Assembly (NCBI RefSeq): GCF_000027125.1
Contig: NC_017626.1
Length of the DNA: 64,000 bases
Source of the DNA: Escherichia coli 042
GTDB lineage: Bacteria; Pseudomonadota; Gammaproteobacteria; Enterobacterales; Enterobacteriaceae
Strand: one strand, 5' to 3'
This document shows, one piece after another, positions 19,142 to 64,000 of the stretch. Each line of letters begins with the position of its first letter. The stretch's first letter is position 1. A model generated the notes under the pieces. That model made no database searches. It saw only the letters and a list, made by a program, of their open reading frames with translations, and was not told where the DNA came from. The translations under genes were made by a program, and so were the position numbers.

Positions 19142-20769
19142 CTGTTCGACCTCTCCCCGTCCCAGGGTATCTGGACAAAAAATTGTGTGAAAATCCCGGG
19201 TTCCGATTCCACGGCGATGCTGCCGCCGAGATTTTCTACCTGTTGTTTGACAAGTGCTAAACCGACGCCTCGCTCGCTTCCTTTTGTCGAGACACCTTTG
19301 TCAAAAATGTGATCGATTTTGTCGGGTGCGATCCCCGGTCCATCATCGTTAACTTCACAGTGCAGCCAGCCGTGACGGTAGTGCAATGTTACGCTAATTT
19401 CGCCACCGGGTTCCGGCCCTAATGCTTCCAGCGCGTTTTCTATCAGATTTCCCAACGTGGTAATCAGCGTCGCGACCTGGTCTTCACTGCCGCTGTCTGG
19501 CAGCTGGCTTTCACTGTTTAAAATCAGCGTATGGCCTAAATCGGTCGCGCGGTTAATCTTGCTGATTAAAAAACCAGCGATAACCGGAGATTTGATCTTA
19601 CCCAGCAGAGAGCCAATCTCTTCCTGATAGTTATTGGCTGTTTTGAGAATGTAATCTTCCAACTGCTTATAACTCTTCAGATGCAATAATCCGAGAATCA
19701 CATGCAATTTATTCATAAATTCGTGGGACCGTTCACGAAGTGCGTCAGCATAGTTGACCAGACCGTCGAGTCGTTGCATCAGTTTACGTACTTCAGTTTT
19801 GTCCCTGAAGGTTGAAATGGCACCGATGATAACGCCATTACTGCGCACCGGAACGGTGTTGATCAGTAATAGCCGGTCTTTAATCGTAATCTCTTCGTCG
19901 CGGCGCGGGGTACCGTCGCGTAACACTTCCGAGACATCTACCACCTGTGACCACGAGTGGCTTAGCGTCGACAGTTTCTCATCGTCCTGCGACTTACGGT
20001 AATTCAGCAATTCTTGTGCGGCATCGTTGATCAGCGTGACCTCGCCGCGATCGTCCACGGCAACGACGCCTTCTTTGATAGACTGCAACATGGCCTGGCG
20101 TTGCTCAAACAGCGTGGAGATTTCGTAGGGTTCCAGGCCGAAAAGGATTTTTTTCAGTACTTTAACCAGAATGCAGGTGCCAATCAGTCCGACCAGCATG
20201 CCAAATAATACTGACCAGATAATGCTCCAGCGACTGTCATTGATCTGTTGGGTCACGCGGCTTAACTCAAGGCCGATCGCCACCACGCCAATTTGTTTAT
20301 GATTTTCATCGTAGATGGGGGTAAATACGCGTAAAGCCTGCGCCAGAAAACCGCGATTGATAGCGACATTTTCTTCGCCATTCAGCGCTTTAAGGATGTC
20401 ATCACCTTTAAATGGCTGACCAATACGCTGGGCTTCAGGATGCGAGTAGCGAAGACTTTGCATATCGGTAACGACAATAAACAGCAGATCGTTGCGTTTG
20501 CGTACGGCTTCCGCGATGGCCTGGATGCCGCTCTCCTGCGGTTTTTTCTGCAAGCCCTGACGGATTTCCGGCGAGTCGGCGAGAGTACGCGCCACTGCCA
20601 GTGCCTTGTTGGCTAGCCCGTCTCGCGTCATATCACTGATTTGCGAGAAGTAAATCAGATGCACCACCAATAGCACCGAGAACAGTACCGCGCTGACCAT
20701 TAAGATCACAGTGGTACTCAATTTCATCGGACGTTTGCGTAACATGCGGTAGGGCAATGAATGTCTCAT
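19138..20769 (-). CDS. dcuS: C4-dicarboxylate sensor histidine kinase DcuS
   Basis: 543 aa; two TM segments flanking a periplasmic domain, then PAS and kinase domains. Confidence 0.93.
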   Translation of the reverse strand: MRHSLPYRMLRKRPMKLSTTVILMVSAVLFSVLLVVHLIYFSQISDMTRDGLANKALAVARTLADSPEIRQGLQKKPQESGIQAIAEAVRKRNDLLFIVVTDMQSLRYSHPEAQRIGQPFKGDDILKALNGEENVAINRGFLAQALRVFTPIYDENHKQIGVVAIGLELSRVTQQINDSRWSIIWSVLFGMLVGLIGTCILVKVLKKILFGLEPYEISTLFEQRQAMLQSIKEGVVAVDDRGEVTLINDAAQELLNYRKSQDDEKLSTLSHSWSQVVDVSEVLRDGTPRRDEEITIKDRLLLINTVPVRSNGVIIGAISTFRDKTEVRKLMQRLDGLVNYADALRERSHEFMNKLHVILGLLHLKSYKQLEDYILKTANNYQEEIGSLLGKIKSPVIAGFLISKINRATDLGHTLILNSESQLPDSGSEDQVATLITTLGNLIENALEALGPEPGGEISVTLHYRHGWLHCEVNDDGPGIAPDKIDHIFDKGVSTKGSERGVGLALVKQQVENLGGSIAVESEPGIFTQFFVQIPWDGERSNR

Positions 20770-31660: not shown

Positions 31661-31682
31661 TGGTGCCGGACTCGGAATCGAA
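31661..31682 (-). repeat. att-like degenerate copy of the tRNA-Phe 3' end, marking the island boundary
   Basis: tggtgccggactcggaatcgaa matches the reverse complement of the tRNA-Phe 3' end (GGTTCGATTCCGAGTCCGGGCACCA) with one C missing; no D-arm or anticodon arm follows, so the tRNA body is not here. Confidence 0.7.
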
Positions 31683-31792
31683 AATTTCTTTTATCATATT
31701 GATATTAATATAATTTATTTGGTTTGATTAAAAATGTACCCTCAATTATACCCGCAGTCCCTTTTGATATCGAAAGGGAATCACACTCGGGA

Positions 31793-39878: not shown

Positions 39879-39992
39879 TCCGTGATGAATATCATGTTAT
39901 TGTGAATGCCAGTGAATGTGGCACTGAAATGTTTTCCCCCGTCCGGGTCCCGGTCATGATGACCGGAACCACAGAGAGGCAATGCAGAATTA

Positions 39993-42900: not shown

Positions 42901-43112
42901 TGGTTTACCAGTGTTCCGCCATTCACTGTTTCACCCGGGTGCACAACGATGTCAGCAGCCAGCACCGGGAGTGACGTGACTGCGGCAAGAGACAGTGCAA
43001 CCGCCACACCGCCACGTTTACCCCGTGCGCGGGCCAGTTCGGAGGCAACCACGAAAGCGCCCGTAATGTGATTCCATACCAGCCTGTAGCAGGTATTCAG
43101 ATGTCGTTTCAT
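39993..43112 (-). CDS. flu: Antigen 43 (Flu) self-associating autotransporter adhesin
   Basis: ORF 39993-43118; from the third Met (MKRHLNTCYRLVWNH...) gives 1039 aa; extended signal peptide, beta-helical passenger repeats, C-terminal beta-barrel ending ...ATLNVTF. Confidence 0.93.
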   Translation of the reverse strand: MKRHLNTCYRLVWNHITGAFVVASELARARGKRGGVAVALSLAAVTSLPVLAADIVVHPGETVNGGTLVNHDNQFVSGTADGVTVSTGLELGPDSDDNTGGQQIARGGTARNTTVTANGLQDVMAGGSATDTVISAGGGQNLRGQAYGTVLNGGEQWIHAGGSASGTVINQSGYQTIKHGGQATGTIVNTGAEGGPESENVSSGQMVGGTAESTTINKNGRQVIWSSGMARDTLIYAGGDQTVHGEAHNTRLEGGNQYVHKYGLALNTVINEGGWQVIKEGGTTAHTTINQKGKLQVNAGGKASDVTQNTGGALVTSTAATVTGTNRLGAFSVLAGKADNVVLENGGRLDVLSGHTATNTRVDDGGTLDVRNGGAATTVSMGNGGVLLADSGAAVSGTRSDGTAFRIGGGQADALMLEKGSSFTLNAGDTATDTTVNGGLFTARGGSLAGTTTLNNGATLTLSGKTVNNDTLTIREGDALLQGGALTGNGRVEKSGSGTLTVSNTTLTQKTVNLNEGTLTLNDSTVTTDVIAQRGTALKLTGSTVLNGAIDPTNVTLTSGATWNIPDNATVQSVVDDLSHAGQIHFTSTRTGKFVPATLQVKNLNGQNGTISLRVRPDMAQNNADRLVIDGGRATGKTILNLVNAGNSGTGLATTGKGIQVVEAINGATTEEGAFVQGNMLQAGAFNYTLNRDSDESWYLRSEERYRAEVPLYASMLTQAMDYDRILAGSRSHQTGVNGENNSVRLSIQGGHLGHDNNGGIARGATPESSGSYGFVRLEGDLLRTEVAGMSLTTGVYGAAGHSSVDVKDDDGSRAGTVRDDAGSLGGYMNLTHTSSGLWADIVAQGTRHSMKASSGNNDFRARGWGWLGSLETGLPFSITDNLMLEPRLQYTWQGLSLDDGKDNAGYVKFGHGSAQHVRAGFRLGSHNDMTFGEGTSSRAPLRDSAKHSVRELPVNWWVQPSVIRTFSSRGDMRVGTSTAGSGMTFSPSQNGTSLDLQAGLEARVRENITLGVQAGYAHSVSGSSAEGYNSQATLNVTF

Positions 43113-43445: not shown

Positions 43446-44318
43446 TCAGAAGAAGATCCAGTTCCATACCGCGCGGGCAACAGAGACCACGGTGTCACGA
43501 ACAGCGCGCAGGGCCGTACGGACAACAGAGGCAACACAGACGCTCTCCGCTGTGTCAAATATCCGGTCCACCGCACCGGTAAACTGTTCACGGGCCTGAG
43601 AGCGGACAGACTCCGTGCGCAGCTCGTCCTGCAGTCGGGTCATCAGGGGGCTGGCGGCATGGTCGGGAAGCGCTGTCATGAGCGCACTGACCAGCGTATC
43701 CAGTTCCCAGCCGGTGCGGGCCGATACGGCAACAACCGGATGTACGGGCCGGAACAGACGGAATACCGCCTCCGTTTTCTCACGAATGTTCTGTTCCTGT
43801 GCGGGAGAAGGCTGAATACCTGCCATATCCCATTCATGGCAGGGTTCCGTTTTGTCAGCCTGCGTCACCACAAACAGCACCTGCTGATGTCCGCACTGCA
43901 GGATGTGTCGCCAGAAATACTCATCCACAGACAGGGCCCGGTCATCGGCTTTAATCAGCCACAGCACCAGGTCCAGTTCAGGCAGAATGTCACGGTACAG
44001 GGCTTCATACTCTGCATCCCTGTCCCGGCTCTCGCCCACCCCGGGCAGGTCAGTGATAACCATGCTGTGACCGTGACCACTCAGACGGAAGCGCTGCACT
44101 TCCCGGGTGCCGGCGTGAACATCACTGACCGGTGTGACCTCCCCCTGAAACAGTGCATTACAGAGTGAAGATTTACCGGCCCCGCTTTTACCCATAATGC
44201 CAATCACGGGTTCGTGACTGGTGAGTTTGCGCAGATGTTCCAGGATGTGACGGGAAAGTGAGTAAGGCAGGGAGGAGAGCGGTTTTTCAATTGCCTCAAT
44301 GGCATCAGACGGATTCAT
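43446..44318 (-). CDS. YeeP/YkfA/YfjP-family GTPase
   Basis: P-loop GIMGKSGAGKSS and DxxG motif DLPG; upstream of flu as yeeP is in CP4-44. ORF 43446-44357, internal Met start assumed. Confidence 0.8.
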   Translation of the reverse strand: MNPSDAIEAIEKPLSSLPYSLSRHILEHLRKLTSHEPVIGIMGKSGAGKSSLCNALFQGEVTPVSDVHAGTREVQRFRLSGHGHSMVITDLPGVGESRDRDAEYEALYRDILPELDLVLWLIKADDRALSVDEYFWRHILQCGHQQVLFVVTQADKTEPCHEWDMAGIQPSPAQEQNIREKTEAVFRLFRPVHPVVAVSARTGWELDTLVSALMTALPDHAASPLMTRLQDELRTESVRSQAREQFTGAVDRIFDTAESVCVASVVRTALRAVRDTVVSVARAVWNWIFF

Positions 44319-44427
44319 ACATGTATTCCCGGTGAAAAAAGACAAAACCCCGCGCACCGGAAAGGTGGCGGGGGATTCACGGAGATAATATCTGTCTGAG
44401 ATTATTTAGAATGTAACAGGTAATGAA

Positions 44428-45447
44428 TTACTTCCTTCGCTTGTGTTCAAGATATTTCTCTGTAATCAGCATTTCAAAAAACTCTCCTGTTCTCAGACCG
44501 TAAACAGTTCTGAGCTCATCAAGCATTTCTTTCACATTGCTTCTTATATGTATATTAATGGCCTTTTTACCATCACTCCGATATTTGTCCTTTTGTTTTT
44601 TCTGATGCCAGGCATGATTTATTCGTGTTCTGAACAGTTCAATGGTATCAGGCGCTTCTTTCCATAAAGCAAAGGCGACAAGAGAGGCAAGATAATATTC
44701 TTTCGTTGAAGATGGTATGAACCACCGGGTCACTGGGTTATGTACTGGATGTTTTTCATCCTGTTTTTGTTTCAGTCTTGTCCAGAACCACTGACACATT
44801 TCATCATCGTCAGGAAGGAACCACTTAAACTTTTGACAAGCGCTTTTCTTTTTAAGCCACGCCTGCCTGAGTTCCTCGAGGTATATGCTTTTTGCATTTT
44901 TATTAATTAAAGAATGGCAGGAGTCAAAATATGAAATGATTACTTTTATTCGTTCGTTATGGGATGATGGATTATCCGGAAGGTTACTTTTTTTGTAAGT
45001 ATTTAACGTTTCATCGGTAACTGTTCGTATTTTCCTGACTTCAATTCCGTTTTTTATTCCTGATGAATTATGGTTTATTTTCGGGAATTTTGTATGGTCT
45101 TCCTTCGACAGATAAATAGTAGTCCAGGTAAAGAAAGTCGCAAGTTCGTCAGTTTTCAACCAGAGAAAACTCTCTTCAGGCAGTATTGCCTGCCCTGCAA
45201 TAATTTCAAGTTCATTAATTTCTTTGCTGAGAGCTTCTTCTGCAGTCGAACCAAAAACACCAAAAGAATTGTTTGAAGCTTTATAATACTTTTCTTTTAA
45301 AAACGAATTAACATTTCTGATACAGTTTTGTGGGTTGTCAGGCGCAAACTGAGGGAATTCATTGGGGTATTTGTGATTCAGATATTCGGCATAAAACCGA
45401 CATTTACGGGGATCTTTGCATTTGATAAGCATCTGTTCGTTATTCAT
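44428..45447 (-). CDS. Orphan hypothetical protein (339 aa) in AT-rich segment
   Basis: Lys/Asn-rich ORF with low-GC codon usage unlike its neighbours; no motif recognised by eye. Confidence 0.55.
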   Translation of the reverse strand: MNNEQMLIKCKDPRKCRFYAEYLNHKYPNEFPQFAPDNPQNCIRNVNSFLKEKYYKASNNSFGVFGSTAEEALSKEINELEIIAGQAILPEESFLWLKTDELATFFTWTTIYLSKEDHTKFPKINHNSSGIKNGIEVRKIRTVTDETLNTYKKSNLPDNPSSHNERIKVIISYFDSCHSLINKNAKSIYLEELRQAWLKKKSACQKFKWFLPDDDEMCQWFWTRLKQKQDEKHPVHNPVTRWFIPSSTKEYYLASLVAFALWKEAPDTIELFRTRINHAWHQKKQKDKYRSDGKKAINIHIRSNVKEMLDELRTVYGLRTGEFFEMLITEKYLEHKRRK

Positions 45448-46941
45448 TATCTCACTCCATGTCGCCTCTCTTATAACAAAATCGTCTCAATTTTATTTTG
45501 TCACTAAGTGATTATCAAATGTTTTTGTTGTGATTTGTTTATGTTTTTAAATGTCTATGTCATGTTATCAGTGTTTTTATATAAAGATACATTGATGTTT
45601 TTATGATGGTGAAAAATCATATTTTCTTTTATATTCATTTGGTTATGATTGTTTGTTCTGCATTTGGGGGATGACAGAAAAGAATGGGCTGTGTTGATCA
45701 CATGCGCCGTATGCGCTGTCCAGGTTACAGCGCACCTCAATATTCAGTGTTTTCCTGTTGACTGGCATTGTTAATCTTATGTTTTTGGTTTTGTTTTATT
45801 GTGTGGTTGTGAATGTTGTGTTTGGTTTGATGGTTGAGAAAGAAAAAAGAAGACTATGATGCACTAATCAGGAAATATTTTCGACGCCGGTTGAGTTAAA
45901 AGAACAGATAGAGTGGACAGGTGTTGTGTTAATAGTTTACGGCTGACAGCATTCTTATTTTAATAACAGGTGTTATTATTTATGGATTTATACAGACGAT
46001 ACTCCCGCTAAATAGTCAGGTGATGATGGTCGTTGAGTGGTTTTATAAGCTACGTATAGCTCTGTAAGACTTATTAATTCAACGATGACTACCGTTTATT
46101 GATATACATGTATTCGGGAAATGTCATAAAAAATGTCACGTTGTTTGCAGAATCTTTTGTTTTTTAGTTTTTGATACGCAATGACTAAGCAGGAGGACTC
46201 ACTTTGTTTGTATGCTGACCGTGATCGTCAGTGGAGATGAACAATTGACTCTTACACTGAAAAATATACTCTCTTGTTTTTTATCGTTTATCTGCATGAA
46301 ATAAATAATCTTCAGCATTTTTCATGTGAATTTCATCATCTTACCCTGAATGTTCATTTTATCAGTATGATATTCCTTTGTTTACTGATAAAATTAACCG
46401 ATAAATGTTCTTGTTAAGATTGCCAGAATGACAGTTTTTGCTGATTCCGTGCAATGGAAGAGATATTATATCATCTATTTAAGCAATAAGTTTAATACAA
46501 ATTTCAGAAGATGTGTTGGTGAGTTGATGACTAATTTTCAGAGGGGGATGGAAAAGTGTATGGAATCCCACAAAGAAAAAATCGTTATTGTTCAGTTGAC
46601 GTTTATTTCTGGGTGATGACTCCAGTCAGCAGAATATGTTTTTTTCGATGAATGACCCAATAACTTTTTCGTGAATTTCCACGGAGCATGAAAAGCAAAT
46701 CGTTTTCCGGTCCAGCCGTTTGATGTGGGAACGGGGGCAGATGGTGGTGCTCAATGCGCCGGGTAAATATCAATACGATTTGAGGAACCATTTGCTGGTT
46801 AATCTCTTTCCGATAGCATTGGATGCAGCAATCACTACATCCAACGTGAATAACCATGAATTGCACAGAAACAATATACCTGCGACCCTCTCCGGAAATT
46901 CCGGTATCACTGACTACGTACCGCCCGGGAGTGATTATGAA

Positions 46942-47541
46942 TCAACAGGCGTATAACAGGTACTCGTCAATCATCAGTTCAAGCTCGCGCTTTTCCCGTT
47001 TGCGCGCCACAGCCCAGCTTTCAAGTTCTGCGTGTGATTTATGCTTTAACTCTTCAGTCCAGGGCTGCATGGAGTGGGCGCACATCAGATCATACCAGCA
47101 CAGCCATATCAGGGTGTGGTAGAGATCGCGATCGTCAAAACGCCGGAGCAGACTGTTCAGCCTGTTTGCCAGTCGGCTTTCTCCCAGACGATGTAGTTCA
47201 CTGAGTAAAACACCACCCAGGTTAAAATGTGTAAGTAACATGATTTCATGAGTCTGAATGCTGGTCATTAACCCTTCCTGAATGGCAGGAATGAACGGTG
47301 GCGTTGCCGGGTTGACTACCTGATAGAGTCCCTGTGGTGCCACCGAGATGATGGTGCCTTTTTCCGGCAGAAAAAAGTGGGCCAGGGTCAGGCGATGATA
47401 ACCATGAAGATGCGGAGAGCCCATTCCGTGAGCGACAATAAACCGGGTTACACTTGCCATCCATTTCTGATGCTGGGTGAGCAGCAGATCACACCGGTTT
47501 TCAAGTTTTTGCATAATATTCTCTCCTTTAGCACGCAGCAA
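46942..47541 (-). CDS. Hypothetical protein (199 aa) downstream of alpA-like gene
   Basis: Co-oriented with and adjacent to the alpA-like ORF; function unknown. Confidence 0.5.
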   Translation of the reverse strand: MLRAKGENIMQKLENRCDLLLTQHQKWMASVTRFIVAHGMGSPHLHGYHRLTLAHFFLPEKGTIISVAPQGLYQVVNPATPPFIPAIQEGLMTSIQTHEIMLLTHFNLGGVLLSELHRLGESRLANRLNSLLRRFDDRDLYHTLIWLCWYDLMCAHSMQPWTEELKHKSHAELESWAVARKREKRELELMIDEYLLYAC

Positions 47542-48504: not shown

Positions 48505-48717
48505 ATGGAAGTTAAAACCAAAGAAGACTGGCTGTATCAGTTCCGTCGTTGTTCATCCCGGGAGACGCTGGAAAAAGTGATTTCCCACACACGTTATAAA
48601 CTTACCCTTGCGGAGCTGGAAGCCTTCAACTCTGCGGTTGATCACCGACTGGCAGAACTAACCATGAACAAACTTTACGATCGCGTTCCGGCTTCTGTCT
48701 GGAAATATGTTACCTGA
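48505..48717 (+). CDS. hha: Hha/YmoA-family nucleoid-associated modulator paralogue
   Basis: 70 aa; ...[56 protein letters not shown] aligns with core Hha (RRCQTIDTLERVIEK...[25 protein letters not shown]). Confidence 0.8.
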   Translation: [70 protein letters not shown]

Positions 48718-52745: not shown

Positions 52746-52798
52746 GATCGATGTATCTGTTATATTGAGATTTTTCAGATCTTCGTCCTATAATGATC
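52746..52798 (+). promoter_or_regulatory. T6SS promoter candidate: TATAAT -10 flanked by three GATC sites in an AT-rich Fur-box-like context
   Basis: GATC at 52746, 52778 and 52795; TATAAT at 52789-52794 abuts the third GATC; ataatgatcaaaatta resembles the Fur-box core; ~80 nt upstream of tssB. Confidence 0.6.
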
Positions 52799-52874: not shown

Positions 52875-53372
52875 ATGAGCAGTTCGTTTCAGAATGAAAT
52901 CCCGAAAGCAAGGGTAAATCTGAAATTAGACCTACATACGGGTGGTGGGCAGAAGAAAGTGGAGCTTCCGCTCAAACTTCTGGTTGCCGGTGATTTCAGT
53001 AACGGACAGGAAGAGCGTCCACTGTCAGAGCGTGTAAAAACGGATATTAATAAAAACAATTTTAATGATGTTCTGGCAGATATCTCCCCGTCTGTACATC
53101 TGAATGTGGAGAACACGCTTGCCGGTGATGGCTCTGAAGAGAGCATCAGCCTGACTTTCCGCAATATGAACGATTTCACGCCAGAGCAGGTCGCCCGACA
53201 GATTCCCCGTCTTAAAGCCATGCTGGCCATGCGTAGCCTTCTGCGGGACCTGAAAGCCAATCTGCTGGATAACGTGACTTTCCGTAAAGAGCTGGAAAAA
53301 ATTCTGCGTGACCCGGCACTGAGTCAGACGCTGCGTGATGAACTGCGTGCACTGGTGCCGGAAAAGGCGTGA
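52875..53372 (+). CDS. tssB: T6SS contractile sheath small subunit TssB
   Basis: ORF 52851-53372; from the internal Met, MSSSFQNEIPKARVNLKLDL...VELPLKLLVAGDF, a typical TssB/VipA N-terminus; RBS aggagag upstream. Confidence 0.93.
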   Translation: MSSSFQNEIPKARVNLKLDLHTGGGQKKVELPLKLLVAGDFSNGQEERPLSERVKTDINKNNFNDVLADISPSVHLNVENTLAGDGSEESISLTFRNMNDFTPEQVARQIPRLKAMLAMRSLLRDLKANLLDNVTFRKELEKILRDPALSQTLRDELRALVPEKA

Positions 53373-53393
53373 TTTAACGGATTACGAGAGAAA

Positions 53394-54938
53394 ATGCTGA
53401 TGTCTGTACAGAAAGAAAAGAACGTTGCAGAGAGCGTGGTATCTGAAGCGCATGCCGGCGACAGCGTATATGCTTCCCTGTTTGAAAAAATTAACCTGAG
53501 TCCGGTATCTGCCCTGAGTGCACTGGATATCTGGCAGGATCCACAGGCCATGTCAGAAGCATCTGCAGATGAACGTCTGACGGCAGGGATGCAGGTGTTT
53601 ATGGAGTGTCTGGCAAAAGCCGGCACGCAGGTGGAAAAACTCGATAAAGCGCTGATTGACCATCATATTGCAGAGCTTGATTATCAGATCAGCCGTCAAC
53701 TGGATGCTGTGCTTCATCATCCGGAATTTCAGAAAGTGGAGTCGCTGTGGCGGGGCGTGAAGTCCCTGGTGGATAAAACGGACTTCCGCCGTAATGTGAA
53801 AATTGAGCTGCTGGATCTGTCCAAAGACGATCTGCGTCAGGATTTTGAGGATGCGCCGGAAATTATTCAGAGCGGCCTTTATCTGCAGACCTATGTGGCT
53901 GAGTATGACACGCCGGGTGGTGAGCCCATTGCCGCCCTGGTTTCAGCCTGGGAGTTTGATGCATCTGCACAGGACGTGGCGTTGCTGAAAAATATTTCCC
54001 GGGTGGCGGCATCTGCACATATGCCGTTTATTGGTTCAGTTGGCCCGGCGTTCTTCCAGAAAGAAACCATGGAAGAGGTGGCTGCCATCAAGGATATTGG
54101 CAACCACTTTGAGCGTGCCGAGTACATCAAGTGGAATGCTTTCCGTGAGACGGACGATGCCCGCTATATTGGCCTGGTGATGCCCCGTGTACTGGGACGC
54201 CTGCCGTATGGCCCGGATACCGTACCTGTCCGCAGCTTTAACTATGTTGAAGAGGTGAAAGGACCGGACCACCATAAATATCTCTGGACGAACGCGTCTT
54301 TTGCCTTTGCAGCCAACATGGTGCGCAGTTTTGTCACCAACGGCTGGTGTGTTCAGATCCGTGGGCCTCAGGCCGGTGGTGCGGTGCAGGATTTGCCAAT
54401 CCATTTGTATGATCTGGGAACCGGTAATCAGGTCAAAATTCCGTCAGAGGTGATGATCCCGGAAACGCGGGAGTTTGAATTCGCGAATCTGGGCTTTATT
54501 CCGCTCTCTTACTACAAGAACCGGGATTATGCCTGCTTCTTCTCTGCTAACTCCGCCCAGAAACCGGCGCTGTACGATACGCCGGATGCAACGGCGAACA
54601 GTCGTATTAATGCCCGTCTTCCCTATATCTTCCTGCTGTCCCGTATTGCGCATTACCTGAAGATCATTCAGCGGGAAAATATCGGTACCACCAAAGATCG
54701 CCGTCTGCTTGAGCTGGAGCTGAATAACTGGATCCGGGGACTGGTGACGGAGATGACCGATCCGGGTGATGAACTGCAGGCCTCGCATCCGCTGCGTGAC
54801 GGAAAAGTGGTGGTGGAAGATATCGAAGACAATCCGGGATTCTTCCGCGTGAAACTCTACGCCGTACCGCATTTCCAGGTAGAAGGTATGGACGTCAGCC
54901 TGTCACTGGTTTCGCAGATGCCGAAGGCAAAAGCGTAA
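53394..54938 (+). CDS. tssC: T6SS contractile sheath large subunit TssC
   Basis: 514 aa directly after tssB; TssC/VipB-like sequence throughout. Confidence 0.95.
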   Translation: MLMSVQKEKNVAESVVSEAHAGDSVYASLFEKINLSPVSALSALDIWQDPQAMSEASADERLTAGMQVFMECLAKAGTQVEKLDKALIDHHIAELDYQISRQLDAVLHHPEFQKVESLWRGVKSLVDKTDFRRNVKIELLDLSKDDLRQDFEDAPEIIQSGLYLQTYVAEYDTPGGEPIAALVSAWEFDASAQDVALLKNISRVAASAHMPFIGSVGPAFFQKETMEEVAAIKDIGNHFERAEYIKWNAFRETDDARYIGLVMPRVLGRLPYGPDTVPVRSFNYVEEVKGPDHHKYLWTNASFAFAANMVRSFVTNGWCVQIRGPQAGGAVQDLPIHLYDLGTGNQVKIPSEVMIPETREFEFANLGFIPLSYYKNRDYACFFSANSAQKPALYDTPDATANSRINARLPYIFLLSRIAHYLKIIQRENIGTTKDRRLLELELNNWIRGLVTEMTDPGDELQASHPLRDGKVVVEDIEDNPGFFRVKLYAVPHFQVEGMDVSLSLVSQMPKAKA

Positions 54939-54953
54939 GGCAGGTGTCGGGAA

Positions 54954-56291
54954 ATGAAGATTTATCGCCCATTATGGGAAGACGGGGCTTTTCTGATGCC
55001 CCAGCAGTTTCAGCAGCAGGCTGCCTGGGATGTTCATCTGGCAGACAGCGTTGCCAGAATGGGGCTGGCGCATCCATGGGGCGTGGTGGCTGCAGAGTTT
55101 GATGACTCTCTGTTACCGCTTTCACGGTTGAATGCCACCCGTCTGATTGTTCGTTTCCCGGACGGAACGCTTATTGATACGGAACGCGCGGATAATCTGC
55201 CTCCGGTCTGTGATTTATCGACGGTTTCTGATCGTTCCCTGGTGGATATTGTGCTGGCACTACCGTTACTGAATGCTAACGGTGGCAACCTTGATAATGG
55301 CAGTGAGAGCGAGCGTCCGCGTCGCTGGAAATCAGAAAGGGTGAATGTGCAGGAGCTGGCCGGGCATGAGCAAAGCGAAGTGGCGGTATTGCGGCATAAC
55401 CTGACTCTGCGCATGGCTCATCAGGAAAATGCTGCCTGGCTGACCTGTCCCGTTACCCGTCTTGTTCGTGATGCACAGGGACAGTGGTGCAGGGACCCGC
55501 GTTTTATTCCCCCTCTGCTGACGCTGTCTGCCAGTCCTTCGCTGATGACTGAACTTGCGGAGTTGCTTCATCACCTGCAGGCGCGTCGCCAGCGACTGAT
55601 GTCCATGCGTCGGGAGAACAATGCCCGTCTTGCGGATTTTGCTGTGGCGGACGTGTCGTTGTTCTGGTTGCTGAATGCCCTGAACAGTGCGGAGCCTGTT
55701 CTGAAAGAGTTGCTTGACATGCCTTACCGCCACCCGGAACTGTTGTACAGGGAGCTTGCCCGGCTGGCAGGCTCCCTGCTCACATTCTCGCTTGAGCATA
55801 ATGTGGATGCGGTTCCGGCATACCATCATGAAACACCTGAAAATGTTTTCCCACCATTGCTTTCTTTGCTGAACCGGCTGCTGGAGGCAAGCCTGCCTTC
55901 CCGTGTGGTTTTCATTGAACTGAAACAAAAGGGTGTGATGTGGGAGGGGGCATTACATGATGCGCGTCTGCGCGAAGGGGCTGATTTCTGGCTTTCAGTG
56001 CGCTCTTCCATGCCCGGGCATGAACTGCAGACGAAGTTTCCGCAGCTATGCAAAGCCGGGAGCCCCGATGATGTGTCTGAGGTGGTGAATGTGGCGCTGA
56101 GCGGGGTCATTATCCGTCCGGTTACGCATGTACCGGCGGCCATTCCGCTCCGGCTGGAAAACCAGTATTTCGCGCTGGATTTAAGTACGGATGCGGCCCG
56201 GGCGATGCTGGACGCGGGGCGTTGTACTTTCTACACCCCGGCATCGCTGGGAGATGTGAAACTGGAACTTTTTGCGGTGCTGCGGACATGA
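54954..56291 (+). CDS. tssK: T6SS baseplate protein TssK
   Basis: 445 aa; MKIYRPLWEDGAFLMPQQFQQQ, canonical TssK N-terminus. Confidence 0.9.
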   Translation: MKIYRPLWEDGAFLMPQQFQQQAAWDVHLADSVARMGLAHPWGVVAAEFDDSLLPLSRLNATRLIVRFPDGTLIDTERADNLPPVCDLSTVSDRSLVDIVLALPLLNANGGNLDNGSESERPRRWKSERVNVQELAGHEQSEVAVLRHNLTLRMAHQENAAWLTCPVTRLVRDAQGQWCRDPRFIPPLLTLSASPSLMTELAELLHHLQARRQRLMSMRRENNARLADFAVADVSLFWLLNALNSAEPVLKELLDMPYRHPELLYRELARLAGSLLTFSLEHNVDAVPAYHHETPENVFPPLLSLLNRLLEASLPSRVVFIELKQKGVMWEGALHDARLREGADFWLSVRSSMPGHELQTKFPQLCKAGSPDDVSEVVNVALSGVIIRPVTHVPAAIPLRLENQYFALDLSTDAARAMLDAGRCTFYTPASLGDVKLELFAVLRT

Positions 56292-56941
56292 ATAAACCTG
56301 TTATCTCCCGGGCTGAACAGATTTTTTATCCCGGCTGGCTGATGGTCAGCCAGCTGCGCAGCGGGCAACCGGTTGAGGATGGTAAGGCCCTGTATCGCCG
56401 TGCCTGTCAGCTGGTGAAACAGGCGCGTGAAGAGCTGGCCGAAGCAGGATTCAGTCAGAAAAGCAGTGACATCATGTTGTATGCCTTCTGCGCCCTGCTG
56501 GACGAGAGTGTACTGAACCGCGAAAAAACAGACGATGGCTGGCGCACCTGGCAGCAGGACCCGCTGCAGGCTCATTTTTTTGGTACGCTCAATGCCGGTG
56601 AAGAGCTCTGGGAGCGTATTCGTGAACAACTGAAATTACCAGCGCCGGATGTGGCGGTACTGACATGCCTCTGCCGTACGCTTCAGCTCGGTTTTACCGG
56701 TCAGTACCGGTCGCAGGATGATGAGCGTCGCGAAGATGTAATACGCGCACTGACAGCGCGTGTTCCTGCATTTACTTTCGCACAGGATGCGCCGGTGGTG
56801 GTGCGTGCACCGGGTTACCGTGCTGGCAGAACGATGTACTGGTTGTCATGGGGGGCGGGTATTGTGACGCTGGCTGGTCTCTGGTGTGTGCTTTCTTCTG
56901 TGCTTGCAGACCAGGTGGCACGGCTTACCGGGCAGGGATAA
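56288..56941 (+). CDS. tssL: T6SS membrane-complex protein TssL (DotU-like)
   Basis: ORF 56222-56941; start taken at the ATGA overlap with the tssK stop (MNKPVISRAEQIFYPGWL...); cytoplasmic DotU domain plus single C-terminal TM helix. Confidence 0.88.
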   Translation: MNKPVISRAEQIFYPGWLMVSQLRSGQPVEDGKALYRRACQLVKQAREELAEAGFSQKSSDIMLYAFCALLDESVLNREKTDDGWRTWQQDPLQAHFFGTLNAGEELWERIREQLKLPAPDVAVLTCLCRTLQLGFTGQYRSQDDERREDVIRALTARVPAFTFAQDAPVVVRAPGYRAGRTMYWLSWGAGIVTLAGLWCVLSSVLADQVARLTGQG

Positions 56942-56943
56942 CC

Positions 56944-58674
56944 ATGCACGTACGTTCCCGTCTCTGGCTGACAATACTGAGTCTGTTCCTGACACTGTGG
57001 CTGATTTCGGGATTCCTGCCGCTGTCTGCAGTAAACCAGATAATACTGACCCTGGTTTCAGTTGTGGCGGCGGGGCTTGTGCTGTGGTACCAGTGGCGTT
57101 GTCTGTCTTCCCGTCGTGATATCCCGGAGAAGGCCGGCGATGACGGTCTGCCGCCTGAGTATTTTCAGGGACATGTGCTGCTTGTTGCCGGAAACTCAGA
57201 TGCGTGGTTCGAACCCGGTCAGGCATACCGGGAAACAGCATCGGGATGGTATCTTCGTGTGGATACGCCGGAGCAGATGAGAATACTGGCAGAACGGTTG
57301 TCGTACAGCCGTCCGGCCCTGTGTGGCCAGGTCGTGGTCATGCTGGGACTTTTACCGGAGCAGCATACCTCAGATGAAGCTTTCCTGTCGTGGTTGCGGA
57401 ACTGGCAGCGTGCAGTCATGCAGTGCCGGCAGTGGCTGAATACCACGCCACCGGTGCTGGTTACATTGATGGTTTCAGAGCCGTCACCACAAAACACATC
57501 CTTAAATAAGCACTCTACACACTGGTTTACACTGACACCGGACCTGCCGGGAATGCATATACGCCTGACGGAAGCCGGAGCAATTCCGGCAGAGGAATGG
57601 CTGCAGGCGTGTGATGCAGCGTCCAGGCTCCGGTGCGTCAGTGAACTGTTATGGCTGAATGCCATGTTGTCCTGGTACAACCGGGTTACTGATGCCCTGA
57701 CAGCTATTTGCCGGCAGGAGCACTTTTATTTCCGGCCGGTTGCCGTTGGATTCTGTCTGACGTCGGTTGCGGCCCGCCCCGGTAATCTCTGGCAACAACA
57801 ACTGACGTCCCTCACTGCATTGCCACCGCCTGCCGGCGTGTCATCACAGGTATTGCCGTTGCCGGATATTCTGCTGTCCGGTATTCCCCGTCATCGTGGA
57901 CTCAGTCACTGGCACAGACTTTGTCGCCAGACGGGGGCGATTGTCGGTGTTTTTCTTCTGCTGGCTATGCTGGCGTCTTTTATGAATAACCAGCGGCTGG
58001 TTCGCAGCGTGGGGGAACACCTGACGGCCTGGCACCGGATGCGCGGATATTCATCTGAATCGAAAACAACAGCACTGCAACGTCTTCAGGCTGACAGCCA
58101 GTTACTGAACGACTGGCAGCAACGTGGTGTGCCACAGCGTTACGGACTGGGATTGTATCAGGGAATGTGGCTGATACCGCCGGTTGAGCGTGCGACTGGT
58201 GAGTGGGTTGCACCACGGCCTCCCCGTCCGGTGATACAGAAAGTTACTCAGACGCCGAAAACGGTTCGCCTTAACAGCCTGGCACTGTTTGATGCCGGTA
58301 AATGGACGCTGAAGCCGGGCGCCACAAAATGGCTGGTGAATGCCCTGGTGGATATTAAGGCAAAAGCAGGCTGGCTGATTGTGGTCAGTGGTCACACGGA
58401 TAATACCGGTGACCCGCTGCGCAACCAGGCCTTGTCCCTGAAGCGTGCAGAGGCCGTTCGCGACTGGATGCGGGATACCGGCGATATTCCCCAAAGCTGT
58501 TTTGCCGTACAGGGATACGGTGAAAGCCGCCCTGTGGCCCCGAATGACACGGCGGAAGGCCGTGCGCGTAACCGCCGTGTTGAAATCAGTCTGGTACCGC
58601 AGGCCGATGCCTGTCGTCTGCCGGACGTTTCCCCTGCGCCGGAAGAGGGCGCATCAGAAAACATAACGGAGTAA
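56944..58674 (+). CDS. tagL: TagL-like T6SS accessory protein: polytopic membrane domain plus C-terminal OmpA/MotB-type peptidoglycan-binding domain
   Basis: ORF 56848-58674; Met at 56944 immediately after the tssL stop gives 576 aa; N-terminal TM helices; C-terminal VSGHTDNTGDPLRNQALSLKRAEAVRDWM...NRRVEI OmpA-like motif. Confidence 0.8.
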   Translation: MHVRSRLWLTILSLFLTLWLISGFLPLSAVNQIILTLVSVVAAGLVLWYQWRCLSSRRDIPEKAGDDGLPPEYFQGHVLLVAGNSDAWFEPGQAYRETASGWYLRVDTPEQMRILAERLSYSRPALCGQVVVMLGLLPEQHTSDEAFLSWLRNWQRAVMQCRQWLNTTPPVLVTLMVSEPSPQNTSLNKHSTHWFTLTPDLPGMHIRLTEAGAIPAEEWLQACDAASRLRCVSELLWLNAMLSWYNRVTDALTAICRQEHFYFRPVAVGFCLTSVAARPGNLWQQQLTSLTALPPPAGVSSQVLPLPDILLSGIPRHRGLSHWHRLCRQTGAIVGVFLLLAMLASFMNNQRLVRSVGEHLTAWHRMRGYSSESKTTALQRLQADSQLLNDWQQRGVPQRYGLGLYQGMWLIPPVERATGEWVAPRPPRPVIQKVTQTPKTVRLNSLALFDAGKWTLKPGATKWLVNALVDIKAKAGWLIVVSGHTDNTGDPLRNQALSLKRAEAVRDWMRDTGDIPQSCFAVQGYGESRPVAPNDTAEGRARNRRVEISLVPQADACRLPDVSPAPEEGASENITE

Positions 58675-58679
58675 TTTTT

Positions 58680-59171
58680 ATGGCAATTCCAGTTTATCTG
58701 TGGCTGAAAGATGATGGCGGTGCAGATATCAAAGGGTCCGTGGATGTTCAGGACCGTGAGGGCAGCATTGAGGTGGTGGCTCAGGAGCACTGCCTCTACA
58801 TCCCGACGGATAACAATACCGGTAAGCTGACCGGTACCCGTATTCACACGCCGTTTCTGTTTACCAAGGAAATTGATTCTTCCAGCCCGTACCTTTACAA
58901 GGCCGTGACCACCGGGCAGACCCTGAAGTCTGCTGAGTTTAAGTGGTACAAAATCAATGATGCCGGTCAGGAGGTGGAGTATTTCAATACGAAGCTTGAG
59001 AACGTGAAGGTGGTGAAGGTTAACCCGGTCATGCACGACATCAAGAATCCCGCTTACGAGAAGCATAACCACCTTGAGCAGGTGGAACTGCGCTACGAGA
59101 AAATCACCTGGACTTACAAGGACGGCAACATCATTCATTCCGACGCATGGAGTGAGCGTACCACCGCGTAA
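58680..59171 (+). CDS. hcp: T6SS inner tube protein Hcp (TssD)
   Basis: 163 aa; MAIPVYLWLKDDGGADIKGSVDV, classic Hcp. Confidence 0.93.
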   Translation: MAIPVYLWLKDDGGADIKGSVDVQDREGSIEVVAQEHCLYIPTDNNTGKLTGTRIHTPFLFTKEIDSSSPYLYKAVTTGQTLKSAEFKWYKINDAGQEVEYFNTKLENVKVVKVNPVMHDIKNPAYEKHNHLEQVELRYEKITWTYKDGNIIHSDAWSERTTA

Positions 59172-59330
59172 TTCTGCCGGACGGACAGGGCATCCTGTCC
59201 GTCATTTTTATTTTTTCTTCAGCATCTGTTGGCGGGTGCTGAAGAAAGAATTCTCAATCCTGAACACAGACCTGATGCGCCTGGGTTACGGCGAAGGGCG
59301 GTAGCGTGCCTGACGGTCTCCTGACAGTGA

Positions 59331-61997
59331 GTGAATAACATGGAAAATTCGGCAGCCCTGTTACGTCGTCTTAATCATTACTGTGCCCGTGCACTGGAAG
59401 GCGCAGCCTCCCTTTGCCAGACCCGGGCCCATGCGGAAATCACCCCGGAGCACTGGTTACTGAAACTGCTGGAGCAGGGGGAAGGAGACCTTACCGTGCT
59501 GGGCAGGCGTTATGACTGGGATATGGACGCGATATGGCAGTCGCTGCTCGGCTGGCTGGATAACCAGCCCCGTAGCGTACGCAGTCGCCCGCAGCTTGCG
59601 CAGTCCCTGAATGCTCTGCTGAAACAGGCCTGGATGGTGGCCTCATTACAGGGAGAAGAACATATCCGCAGCGTGCATCTGCTGGGTGCCCTGACGGAAA
59701 ATCCGCACCTGGTTCGCTGTGACGGGCTGTGGCCTCTGCTGACACTGAGTCAGAGCCAGTTGCAGCGTCTGTCCCCGCTGCTGGATGCGCAGTCTGATGA
59801 GTGTCCGGAGACGTTACAGGATGCAGAGCCTGTGCTGCCTCAGGGAGACAGTGTGACCTTTATCGGGCGCCCTGTCGGTGCGGATACGGCAGGTATACCG
59901 TCAGGTGACCTGCCGCCGGTGTTACAGGGTGCGCTGGATAAATTCACCCGGGACATCACGGCCAGCGCGAGAGAGGGGAAAATTGACCCGGTATCGGGAC
60001 GCGATACGGAAATCCGTCAGATGGTGGATATTCTCTCCCGCCGTCGCAAGAATAACCCGATTCTGGTGGGGGACCCCGGTGTGGGGAAAACGGCTCTGGT
60101 GGAAGGGCTCGCCCTGCGTATTGTGGAAGGTAACGTACCAGAATCTCTCAGACCCGTCACCCTGCGCACCCTTGACCTCGGCCTGCTGCAGGCCGGTGCC
60201 GGCGTGAAAGGTGAATTTGAACAGCGTCTGAAAAACGTGATTGATGCCGTGCAGCTGTCACCGGCTCCTGTACTGCTGTTTATAGATGAAGCCCATACCC
60301 TTATCGGTGCCGGTAATCAGGCCGGTGGCGCGGATGCGGCCAACCTGCTGAAGCCTGCGCTGGCGCGAGGCGAACTGCGCACCATTGCTGCCACCACCTG
60401 GTCTGAGTACAAACAATACCTGGAACGTGACGCGGCTCTGGAGCGGCGTTTTCAGATGGTCAAAGTGGACGAGCCGGATGATGAGACGGCCTGTCTGATG
60501 CTGCGCTCCCTGAAATCCCGTTATGCGGAACATCATAACGTGCATATCACCGATGAGGCAGTACGTGCTGCCGTCACACTCTCGCGCCGTTATCTGACAG
60601 AACGTCAGTTACCGGACAAGGCCGTTGACCTGCTTGATACTGCTGCTGCCCGTGTGCGGATGAGCCTCGACACGGTGCCGGAACAGCTGACCCGAATCCG
60701 TTCACAGCTCGCTTCCCTCGGTATGGAAAAACAGGCACTGCTGGAAGATATTGCCGTTGGTCATCAGAATCACGGCGAACGCCTGTCTGCCATTGAGCAG
60801 GAAGAGAACGTGCTGATGACAGCACGTGATGACCTGGAGCAGCAGTACGCCCGTGAGTGCGAACTCACCGGTGAGTTACTTGAAAGCCGCAGCGATATTT
60901 CCCGCCAGAGTGAGACACATCACCTGCAGCAGGCACTGCACGACATTCAGCAGAATCAGCCCCTGCTCAGTGTGGATGTTGACGTACGCACCGTTGCCGG
61001 TGTGGTCGCGGACTGGACCGGAGTGCCGTTATCCTCACTGATGAAGGATGAACAGACGGAACTGCTGCATCTGGAAAAGGATATCGGCAGACGGGTGGTC
61101 GGACAGGACGTGGCACTGGAATCCATTGCACAGCGTCTGCGTGCGGCGAAAACGGGTCTGACATCCGGTAACGGCCCCCAGGAGGTGTTCCTGCTGGTCG
61201 GCCCCAGTGGTGTGGGAAAAACCGAAACGGCACTGGCGCTGGCAGATGTGATGTACGGCGGCGAAAAATCACTGATTACCATCAATCTGTCGGAATATCA
61301 GGAGCCCCATACGGTTTCCCAGCTTAAGGGTTCACCGCCCGGGTACGTGGGATACGGTCAGGGGGGTATTCTGACGGAAGCTGTACGTAAGCGCCCTTAC
61401 AGCGTGGTGCTGCTGGATGAAGTGGAAAAGGCCCACCGGGATGTGCTGAATCTGTTCTACCAGGTGTTTGACCGGGGCTTTATGCGCGACGGTGAGGGGC
61501 GTGAAATTGACTTCCGTAATACGGTCATTCTGATGACCTCCAATCTGGGCAGTGACCTTCTGATGCAGCAACTGAGCGAAAAGCCGGAGACAACGGAATC
61601 GGAGCTGCATGAGCTTATCCGTCCACTGCTGCGCGACCACTTCCAGCCAGCACTGCTTGCCCGTTTCCAGACCGTGATTTACCGTCCGCTGACACCGTCT
61701 GCTATGCGCACCATTGTGGAGATGAAGCTTGCACAGGTCTGCGAACGCCTGCACTGCCATTATGGGCTGAGCACATCGGTTGATGAACGTGTGTACGATG
61801 CCCTGACATCCGCCTGCCTGCTGCCGGATACGGGCGCCCGGAATGTGGAGAGTCTGCTGAACCAGCAACTGCTGCCGGTACTGAGCCGGCAGTTGCTGAG
61901 CCATATGGCCGCGAAGCAGAAACCGCAGGCGCTGGCTCTGGCATGGAGTGACGAAGACGGTATGGTGATTGAGCTGCGGCAGGAATGCGCGTTATGA
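59331..61997 (+). CDS. clpV: T6SS AAA+ ATPase ClpV (TssH)
   Basis: 888 aa; two AAA+ modules with Walker A GDPGVGKT and GPSGVGKT; ClpB-like N-domain. Confidence 0.95.
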
Positions 61998-62560
61998 CCG
62001 GCTATGGCAGAAATCAGGACGCTGGCGCAGGTAAAAATCAAAGGGAAGAAGGCTCATTGCGGTTACTGACGCCGGGAGAGATTGCGCTGGCGAGGCTGGT
62101 ATTCAGGTTGACAATCCCTTATGAAAAGGTCTGGATCCACCATGACAGTTTTCTGCCTTTTGGTCTTCAGAATAAGCAAACTGCCATGCCCCCCGATGGT
62201 AAGATTTATTTCCGTGAGCACTATCGGGATGATTATTCACTCAGCGTTCCCTTTTATCAGCATATGTTTATTCATGAAATGGCGCATGTCTGGCAGCGTG
62301 AAAAGGGAATGAATGTCATCGGTCGGGGGATGTTCAGTTGGGCGGTGAATTACCGTTATGTTCTGGACGGGCGTCTGTTAAGCGAATATCCCATGGAGCA
62401 GCAGGCACAAATTATTGCTGATCATTTTACTTTGCAGGCTGAAGGATACGGGACATGGTGTGATATGAGAAGGGACGGTGATATCACACTGGACGGAAAT
62501 ATGTCTGAGTATGTTATTCGCAGCCTGTATACCAGCACGTTGCGGGGGTTCCCATGGTAA
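61994..62560 (+). CDS. HExxH-motif protein (putative Zn-metallopeptidase-like), T6SS-associated, function unknown
   Basis: ORF 61985-62560; ATGA overlap with the clpV stop suggests translational coupling; motif FIHEMAHVWQ; no signal peptide. Confidence 0.55.
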   Translation: MTGYGRNQDAGAGKNQREEGSLRLLTPGEIALARLVFRLTIPYEKVWIHHDSFLPFGLQNKQTAMPPDGKIYFREHYRDDYSLSVPFYQHMFIHEMAHVWQREKGMNVIGRGMFSWAVNYRYVLDGRLLSEYPMEQQAQIIADHFTLQAEGYGTWCDMRRDGDITLDGNMSEYVIRSLYTSTLRGFPW

Positions 62561-63096
62561 AAATAAGAGCCTTTCGTTATCGTTCTGCTTTACTGCTCTG
62601 TCTGACGTTACTGACAGGATGCCCCGGACGCGGGGATTATTATCGGTTTGATGAAACAGTAACGGTCAGCACAAGAGGCGACAATGTGTGTTTCAGTGTC
62701 CCGGAGCCAGAGGACTACCAGCCAGTCAGCGTTTCCATCGCTCCACGGGGAACCCGATTCAGGGAGCGGCAAATTACATCTGAACCCTCGCTTCGTATCG
62801 TGAACGGCCAGCTGTGCATTCCGCCTTCATTCTGTCTTTTTCCTGATAAAGGCCAGTTCATTGTCAGGTCTGTTCTGCACTCTGAGCGCGATAAGGACAC
62901 ACCGCGCATCATGGTTGCCGGCATAGAGATTGCCGACGGGTGTATTTTCGATATCCCGCTTAATGACATGGAGGTCGTGAGGCCATACGGTGAGCTGAAA
63001 AGCAGTAATGTTCAGACTGACCAGAGCGAACGTCATGGTCCCTGCAAATACCCTTTCAGAGCTGTTCGTGGAGTGATAAATCATGAATCTCACTGA
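62554..63096 (+). CDS. Predicted lipoprotein (180 aa), T6SS-associated
   Basis: Signal peptide plus lipobox LLTGC (MVKIRAFRYRSALLLCLTLLTGC); overlaps the HExxH ORF upstream and vgrG downstream. Confidence 0.55.
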   Translation: MVKIRAFRYRSALLLCLTLLTGCPGRGDYYRFDETVTVSTRGDNVCFSVPEPEDYQPVSVSIAPRGTRFRERQITSEPSLRIVNGQLCIPPSFCLFPDKGQFIVRSVLHSERDKDTPRIMVAGIEIADGCIFDIPLNDMEVVRPYGELKSSNVQTDQSERHGPCKYPFRAVRGVINHESH

Positions 63097-64000
63097 CTCC
63101 CTGCAAAATGTTTTATCCGGGGTGGGAACCCTGAACCGCTACAGACTGGATATACCTTCCTGCCCGTCATCGCTGGATGTTGAAGATTTCAGCGGAACTG
63201 AAGGCATAAGTAAGATTTACCGGTATGACATCATTTTTACCAGTACGGACAGGTATCCTGATGCTGCCTGGTTCCTGCGTAAATCCGCAACCCTGATAAT
63301 GGGAACCGGATTACTGGAAAGCCTGACTGAACAGAAAAAAGTGCACGGTGTTATTACTGATTTCAGACGTATTTCTGGCTCTGAGGACCAGGCACAATAC
63401 CGGATCACACTTAAACCTTTCATTTCCCTGCTGGATAAACAGTTCCGTACACACCGTTTTTTCGTTAATAAATCAGTGCCTGAGGTGGTGGAGCAAATCC
63501 TGACGGAACACGGGCTGAAAGGCTGGGAGTATGAGTTCAGCCTCAAAAGGACATATCCGAAGCGCGAACAGATTAACCAGTATCAGGAAAGCGATCTGAG
63601 ATTTATCCAGCGCCTGCTGGCAGAAGTGGGCATTTTTTACTTCTTTACGTTGCACCCGGATGCGCAGACAGAGGTGATCCACTTCGGTGACGTCCAGGCG
63701 GCGTTGATATTTGATAAAACACTGCCCGTTAACAGCCCGTCCGGTATGAGTGACAGTGGCACAGACTCAGTATGGGCATTGAATGTGGAGCACCGGGTGG
63801 TGGAAAGCCGTGTTATCACGAACGACTATAACCACCGCGAGGCCCAGAACATACTGATGTCCGTACCGGCGGACATGACCCGTGGAGAAGGTTACGACAC
63901 CAGTTATGGCGAGGTTTATCATTACCGGCCACGCCATACAGAAAGGGGCGATAAAATTGACCCTGCGCCGGAGACGGCTAACTTCTGGGCCCGGCTCGAT
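63083..64000 (+). CDS. vgrG: T6SS spike protein VgrG (TssI), N-terminal part; runs off the window end
   Basis: Manual translation from atg 63083: MNLTDSLQNVLSGVGTLNRYRLDIPSCPSSLDVEDFSGTEGISKIYRYDIIFTS...; open to position 64000; typical VgrG gp27-like N-terminus. Not in the ORF track because no stop is reached. Confidence 0.85.
   Translation, partial: MNLTDSLQNVLSGVGTLNRYRLDIPSCPSSLDVEDFSGTEGISKIYRYDIIFTSTDRYPDAAWFLRKSATLIMGTGLLESLTEQKKVHGVITDFRRISGSEDQAQYRITLKPFISLLDKQFRTHRFFVNKSVPEVVEQILTEHGLKGWEYEFSLKRTYPKREQINQYQESDLRFIQRLLAEVGIFYFFTLHPDAQTEVIHFGDVQAALIFDKTLPVNSPSGMSDSGTDSVWALNVEHRVVESRVITNDYNHREAQNILMSVPADMTRGEGYDTSYGEVYHYRPRHTERGDKIDPAPETANFWARLD

Follow-up and report, generated by a model that had tools for sequence, protein, structure and literature searches.

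The Sci-1 type VI secretion cluster in a 64-kb window of Escherichia coli 042 and a predicted metallopeptidase/lipoprotein pair between its clpV and vgrG genes

Which type VI secretion system (T6SS) occupies the 3' part of a 64,000-nucleotide stretch of the E. coli 042 chromosome (contig NC_017626.1; hereafter the window), and what might be the task of the two small genes, here called X and Y, that lie between its clpV and vgrG genes? An earlier note, made from the DNA letters alone, had described positions 52875-64000 as a T6SS cluster with a gene order like that of Sci-1 from enteroaggregative E. coli (EAEC), located inside the pheU island. We conclude that the window carries, in the pheU island, the promoter-proximal half of Sci-1 (T6SS-1), the cluster of enteroaggregative-type E. 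coli; we assign this reading a probability of about 0.95. Sci-1 is already known and heavily studied, with structures of most subunits, a Fur/Dam switch and the Tle1/Tli1 effector pair all published, and finding it here is a correct annotation, not a discovery. The small gain in annotation concerns X and Y, which can, on sequence grounds, be assigned confidently to a known effector/immunity family, that of the zinc metallopeptidase forming the C-terminal domain of VgrG2b and its DUF7480 lipoprotein partner. This assignment suggests a second antibacterial effector in the best-studied E. coli T6SS.

That the cluster is Sci-1 itself, and not merely Sci-1-like, follows from the identity of its proteins with solved EAEC proteins. 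In a search of solved-structure sequences, residues 1-306 of VgrG were 100% identical to PDB 6SJL/6SK0 and residues 438-576 of TagL were 100% identical to PDB 5M38, and full-length matches were obtained for TssK (EAEC TssK, PDB 5M30/6GJ3; 997.7 bits, residues 1-445) and Hcp (EAEC Hcp1, PDB 4HKH; 363.5 bits over 163 residues). At the DNA level, EAEC 55989 and a dozen further complete genomes match the 11.2-kb region with ~100% identity. Of 5426 complete E. coli genomes, 67 have at least 80% of the region, and 1507 have some match, mostly a distant one. When compared with Sci-1 of EAEC 17-2/042 (EC042_4524-4545, pheU island), the gene order tssB-tssC-tssK-tssL-tagL-hcp-clpV-4531-4532-vgrG is the same, the proteins are identical or near-identical to the crystallised EAEC proteins, and the Fur/Dam promoter layout, the position of the ops1 element and the island site on the cadC side all agree; no difference is detectable inside the window. 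The gene order is also that of 55989 and of the genome HSP60, so the Sci-1-like order of the earlier note holds and has been narrowed to Sci-1 by protein identity.

The list of open reading frames (ORFs) and a script for starts and stops gave ten co-oriented frames on the plus strand between 52875 and 64000, all without internal stops and in the Sci-1 order (lengths in amino acids, aa):

52875-53372, + strand: tssB, sheath small subunit, 165 aa, intact ORF (TIGR03358, 167.7 bits against a cut-off of 97.25)
53394-54938, + strand: tssC, sheath large subunit, 514 aa (TIGR03355, 664.8 bits against a cut-off of 271.5)
54954-56291, + strand: tssK, baseplate subunit, 445 aa (TIGR03353, 405 bits)
56288-56941, + strand: tssL, short form, C-tail-anchored membrane-complex subunit, 217 aa (NF038239, 271.5 bits against a cut-off of 180)
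56944-58674, + strand: tagL (SciZ), inner-membrane protein with a C-terminal OmpA-like peptidoglycan-binding domain, 576 aa
58680-59171, + strand: hcp (tssD), tube protein, 163 aa (TIGR03344, 164 bits)
59340-61997, + strand: clpV (tssH), AAA+ sheath-recycling ATPase, 885 aa (TIGR03345, 1094.6 bits against a cut-off of 884.95)
61994-62560, + strand: X (EC042_4531), 188 aa, predicted zinc-metallopeptidase effector of the VgrG2b C-terminal domain family
62554-63096, + strand: Y (EC042_4532), 180 aa, predicted periplasmic lipoprotein and immunity partner of X
63083 to beyond 64000, + strand: vgrG (tssI), spike, first 306 codons in the window (TIGR01646, 150 bits against a cut-off of 121.8)

The curated NCBIfam cut-offs were exceeded by TssB, TssC, TssK, the short form of TssL, Hcp/TssD and TssH/ClpV, and also by the partial VgrG. 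The expected products of the contiguous genes were thus borne out by family matches and intact frames, and the disrupted core frames that the earlier note had named as refuting evidence do not occur among the genes of the window. Seven of the 13 core genes are represented (TssB, TssC, TssD/Hcp, TssH/ClpV, TssI/VgrG in part, TssK and TssL). Gene identities, intact frames and overlaps, as well as the promoter and ops motifs treated below, were taken from the sequence here.

The T6SS is a contractile injection machine, in which TssB and TssC build the sheath that surrounds a tube of Hcp with the VgrG spike at its tip, TssK is the baseplate part that docks the baseplate to the TssJ-TssL-TssM membrane complex, and ClpV disassembles and recycles the contracted sheath; both Walker A and both Walker B motifs are present in ClpV. 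TagL ties the TssJLM complex to peptidoglycan with its OmpA-like domain. In the window TagL exhibits three hydrophobic stretches followed by Pfam PF00691 (OmpA) at residues 448-544 with the motif NQALSLKRAEAV, and OmpA is its only Pfam domain. TssL has one C-terminal hydrophobic segment (residues 189-210) and is of the short form according to NF038239. A separate TagL anchor in place of a TssL extension, as previously proposed for this cluster, is therefore what we find, and it is a Sci-1 trait.

According to the script, the distances between the genes (in nucleotides, negative for overlaps) are tssB-21-tssC-15-tssK(-4)tssL-2-tagL-5-hcp-168-clpV(-4)X(-7)Y(-14)vgrG, the only sizeable spacer being the 168 nucleotides from hcp to clpV. 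The ATGA overlaps described before at tssK/tssL and at clpV and the following ORF, which is X, are present; in addition X and Y share 7 nucleotides, and Y and vgrG share 14. These overlaps would couple translation of tssK with tssL, and of clpV with X, Y and vgrG.

The promoter region and the non-coding elements of the cluster are as follows:

52746-52798, + strand: sci1 promoter, with -35 TTGAGA at 52765-52770, -10 TATAAT at 52789-52794, three GATC sites and a Fur-box-like match
59180-59216, + strand: terminator-like hairpin directly after hcp, 10-bp stem with 7 G-C pairs and a T-run
59297-59308, + strand: ops element GGCGGTAGCGTG, RfaH loading site in the hcp-clpV spacer
62411-62429, + strand: candidate P4532 site, a Fur-box-like 12/19 match overlapping GATC (62420) in TGATCA, inside the X coding sequence

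The promoter of Sci-1, Psci1, has three GATC sites in 53 nucleotides, with GATC-I located 3' of the -10 in a BclI site and GATC-II and GATC-III flanking the -35 (Brunet et al. 2011, PMC3145626). Upstream of tssB the best sigma-70-like site is TTGAGA-18-TATAAT at 52765-52794, with 11 of 12 matches. GATC occurs at 52746, 52778 and 52795, a span of 53 nucleotides; the copy at 52795 follows the -10 immediately on its 3' side and is part of a TGATCA (BclI) sequence, and those at 52746 and 52778 flank the -35 in ATCGAT (BspDI) and TCAGATC (Hpy188I) contexts. A 13/19 match to the Fur consensus at 52789 overlaps the -10. Judged by these motifs, the layout matches that published for Psci1, restriction sites included. 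A generic promoter scan found no excess of sites (8 against 9.6 expected from shuffled sequence), and among them the 11/12 site alone is meaningful, solely through its coincidence with the promoter already published. In the established Sci-1 system the Fur box and the Dam GATC over the -10 of the sigma-70 promoter give an iron-responsive epigenetic ON/OFF switch, which the motifs here would predict too.

In EAEC, transcription from clpV onward depends on ops1 and RfaH (bioRxiv 10.1101/2025.02.08.637259). The ops sequence GGCGGTAGCGTG has a single match in the 64-kb window, and is kept at the same position in 55989, in HSP60, and in T6SS loci of Yersinia and Pantoea. Past the hairpin behind hcp, ops would recruit RfaH and thereby enable RNA polymerase to continue through the operon's long distal part. 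The hairpin (59180-59203, followed by the T-run) was the top-ranked terminator-like site of our scan; it lies ~80 nucleotides upstream of ops, hence out of reach of RfaH loaded there. Since RfaH loaded at ops cannot act on a hairpin upstream of it, the hairpin may raise the ratio of hcp transcript to that of the downstream genes.

X itself matched no family in Pfam or NCBIfam, and its relationship was revealed only by sequence, profile and fold searches against the PDB. A single-sequence phmmer search with X found PDB 6H56, the effector domain of Pseudomonas aeruginosa VgrG2b, with E=7.9e-20, and a profile of 60 homologues of X found it with E=4.9e-29. In the alignment of these 60 homologues residues H94, E95 and H98 (HEMAH at 94-98, an HExxH motif) and E135 are invariant, and the HExxH and the downstream Glu, the zinc-site residues, align to the corresponding motifs of 6H56. 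An AlphaFold2 model of X had a predicted local distance difference test (pLDDT) score of 81.2, with residues 1-19 disordered, and in a Foldseek search with this model 6H56 was the top and sole significant match (probability 1.00, template modelling (TM) score 0.59-0.62), the next one being noise. X would thus be a small zinc metallopeptidase of the HExxH+E type and, most probably, a cargo effector that acts in the periplasm of the prey. Its homologues, 246 proteins of about 180 aa, are spread across Enterobacterales, and many carry the database name 'type IV secretion protein Rhs', which is wrong for both the secretion system and the protein.

The Y protein carries the lipobox LTGC with Cys23, matches Pfam DUF7480, and scores 84.7 bits with NCBIfam NF045617, 'putative T6SS immunity periplasmic lipoprotein' (cut-off 43); a sequence search of the PDB with Y gave no match. 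RefSeq annotates Y by the same NCBIfam name, and calls X 'hypothetical protein' in 55989 and HSP60. By these signatures Y would be a lipoprotein immunity protein that neutralises X. The X-Y pair was found in 38 of 5426 complete E. coli genomes, always chromosomal and in single copy, and in every listed full-length E. coli match it lies between tssH/clpV and vgrG. An X gene followed by a DUF7480 gene also occurs in Yersinia, Pantoea and Salmonella.

The VgrG2b domain is a toxin that acts in the periplasm and is neutralised by PA0261, and cargo versions with lipoprotein partners in Enterobacteriaceae were already pointed out in the same study (Wood et al. 2019, PMC6899460). The domain is 35% identical to X over 161 aligned columns, with the FIHEMxHVWQ and EQQ motifs kept, and PA0261 is directed to the periplasm, as Y is predicted to be. 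In P. aeruginosa, however, the metallopeptidase domain is fused to the VgrG spike as a specialised effector, whereas X is a separate protein of 188 aa that would have to be loaded as cargo. A closer parallel is found in SPI-20 of Salmonella enterica subsp. arizonae, where SARI_02727 is, like X, a stand-alone HExxH protein of ~189 aa resembling 6H56, and is followed, inside a T6SS cluster, by the gene for SARI_02726, like Y a lipoprotein with DUF7480 and the NCBIfam name 'putative T6SS immunity lipoprotein' (154 aa, compared with 180 aa for Y). Periplasmic toxicity of SARI_02727 and its neutralisation by SARI_02726 have been validated by competition and toxicity assays (2026, PMC12992299). The two pairs are likened here by shared signatures, toxicity and protection having been shown for the Salmonella pair only. 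A Salmonella homologue, P0105, is 67% identical to X.

Similar neighbourhoods are seen in the Yersinia (L006) and Pantoea (L007) loci, which share the order tssK-tssL-tagL-hcp-[ops]-clpV-X-DUF7480-vgrG-lipase and encode X proteins 60-65% identical to the one here. In Yersinia a Tae4 gene stands directly after vgrG and before the lipase gene, unlike the order in the relatives of the window cluster. The Yersinia locus (CABHWP010000039.1, 7034-8611) furthermore contains, after X-DUF7480, a 193-aa C-terminal fragment of ClpV, a 143-aa ORF without Pfam match and a second DUF7480 gene, which suggests duplication or replacement of an effector cassette by recombination via the 3' end of clpV. In a Salmonella enterica contig (Logan SRR8979109_132, 5508-11513) an X homologue, DUF7480, vgrG and a lipase gene follow a 166-aa C-terminal fragment of ClpV, and the unit sits downstream of tssM/PAAR genes. 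A block comprising the clpV 3' end, X, Y, vgrG and the lipase gene seems to travel as one unit.

The placement in the pheU island can be judged from the distal island border, which lies inside the window:

31661-31683, + strand: distal island border, a 23-nucleotide imperfect direct-repeat copy of the tRNA-Phe 3' end (TGGTGCC-GGACTCGGAATCGAA) with one C missing

The sequence at this position, TGGTGCCGGACTCGGAATCGAA, reads as the tRNA-Phe 3' end in reverse complement, minus that C. Owing to the 1-nucleotide deletion in the copy, a search with the exact 25-nucleotide tRNA-Phe 3' end, allowing 3 mismatches at most, found nothing in the window; a shorter pattern matched. No tRNA gene was found within the 64-kb window, so pheU itself lies outside it. 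Immediately to the left of the repeat, ~600 bp away, is cadC, and the left 31 kb of the window are core chromosome (proP, eptA, adiA, melAB, fumB, lysU, cadA, cadB, cadC). HSP60 is collinear with the window, with 99.4% identity across cadC and the island border, and its island ends ~76 kb later with an integrase gene, tRNA-Phe and dicD(yjdC)-dsbD, which is the pheU locus. In HSP60 a short fragment of a tyrosine-recombinase pseudogene is annotated between cadC and the tRNA-Phe repeat. In the literature, too, the pheU island is given as the site of Sci-1 and Sci-2 in EAEC 17-2.

An insertion at pheV rather than pheU would nevertheless be conceivable, since the tRNA-Phe 3' repeat cannot separate the two genes and since in EAEC 55989 this island, with 99.9% identity over 30 kb, is found at the pheV site, next to yghD/gsp. 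Homology to the 55989 island starts exactly at 31661, however, the window left of this position does not match 55989, and the cadC flank with lysU-cadBA before it is the pheU neighbourhood, as in HSP60. For these reasons a pheV site can practically be dismissed; the pheU label given before is right because of the cadC flank, the tRNA-Phe repeat and the tRNA-Phe/dicD end in HSP60. Another question is whether the cluster works at all in this genome, given that the window stops at codon 306 of vgrG, as noted earlier, and that the sequence past 64000 lies outside it. If the part beyond had been deleted or disrupted, what we see would be a decayed remnant and no working machine. T6SS decay is known in such islands, and a neighbouring second T6SS in 55989 and HSP60 consists of ImpA-N and VasL pseudogene fragments. 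Yet the ten visible genes, the promoter and the ops element are all intact, and the ~100% identical relatives 55989 and HSP60 have a complete cluster. In both genomes vgrG is followed by tle1, two copies of tli1, PAAR, a hypothetical gene, tssM (annotated 'ImcF-related family protein'), tssA, a second hypothetical gene, tssF, tssG, tssJ and tssE, whereby all 13 core genes as well as tle1/tli1 are annotated. We consider a remnant highly improbable and infer from these relatives that the cluster is complete also in E. coli 042, and that its machine would be active. The claim that the missing core genes follow vgrG thus stands for the relatives, and applies to the window genome by extension. Effector genes follow vgrG there as well, since Tle1 is a phospholipase effector that binds VgrG (PMC6730261), but not all of them do so, the X-Y pair being upstream of vgrG.

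Whether X and Y are toxin and immunity protein, or accessory or structural parts of the T6SS, is a separate matter. X could be a housekeeping protease for a component of the machine and Y a lipoprotein of the envelope complex; the two genes are wedged between core genes with translational coupling to clpV and vgrG, such genes are termed 'accessory genes' in the literature, and the killing by Sci-1 is credited to Tle1. A structural part would, on the other hand, not be so dispensable, since X-Y was present in only 38 complete E. coli genomes compared with the 67 that have at least 80% of the region and the 1507 with some match. In addition, periplasmic toxicity of the homologous domain is proven in P. 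aeruginosa, as is the effector/immunity action of a stand-alone homologous pair in S. arizonae, and cassettes of X-like and DUF7480 genes are duplicated in Yersinia and found in an orphan vgrG island in Salmonella, as is typical of effector modules. We therefore regard an accessory or structural role as unlikely. A further-reaching reading, to which we give slightly better than even confidence, is that Sci-1 also fires X as a second toxin and that its immunity gene Y, with all genes downstream, can be transcribed independently from the Fur/Dam-controlled promoter P4532, placed here inside X. Several observations weigh against the main reading, that of a whole Sci-1 cluster with X and Y as effector and immunity protein. 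The window ends within vgrG (codon 306), with six core genes beyond its end. The Y protein (180 aa) is longer than its homologues in the Yersinia, Pantoea and Salmonella loci (145-162 aa). Fur-box scores of 12-13/19 are unremarkable by themselves, since 102 sites in the window score at least 12, and because the Psci1 and X sites are not outliers the scoring merely corroborates the literature. We found no functional study of X/Y in EAEC among the papers searched, of which a single one names EC042_4531, only as a landmark (bioRxiv 10.1101/2025.02.08.637259). Sci-1 killing is attributed to Tle1 in published work, and X may add little under laboratory conditions.

The published internal promoter P4532 is described as one where a Fur box and a Dam site occur together with a -10, and the site at 62411-62429 is our best candidate for it on the basis of its motifs. 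This Fur-like/TGATCA site overlies the codons of the most conserved X motif, EQQAQIIADHF. If the site is P4532, Y and all genes downstream of it could be transcribed without the toxin gene X, and, were the reading of X and Y as toxin and immunity protein true, immunity by Y would be kept up while the Sci-1 weapon is OFF. We infer the toxin/immunity function of the pair, and the delivery of X, from the relatives described above. X has 188 aa and no recognisable adaptor, PAAR or MIX signature; it might be loaded through the Hcp lumen or on the VgrG encoded just downstream.

With regard to the rest of the island, 55989 was considered as a collinear guide to the left flank of the island and rejected, being collinear only from 31661 on and having its island at pheV/yghD. 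The element has accordingly used both Phe-tRNA genes, pheV/yghD in 55989 and pheU/cadC in the window and HSP60. The core flank at window positions 1-20000 is at best 99.0-99.1% identical to any of the 5426 complete E. coli genomes, compared with 100% identity to several for the T6SS stretch. Collinearity with 55989 and HSP60 indicates that the cargo at ~31800-52700, typical of such islands, comprises DUF4942, a CbtA/CbeA (YeeV/YeeU-type) toxin-antitoxin pair, RadC, an antirestriction protein, the Ag43 autotransporter (~39990-43110, minus strand), a YeeR-like membrane protein, a GTPase and hha (48505-48717). The lowest G+C content of the window, 0.36-0.39, is found at ~44000-47000, where collinearity with 55989 indicates a gene for a hypothetical protein of 339 aa, ~1.2 kb without annotation and a fragment of an IS1 transposase.

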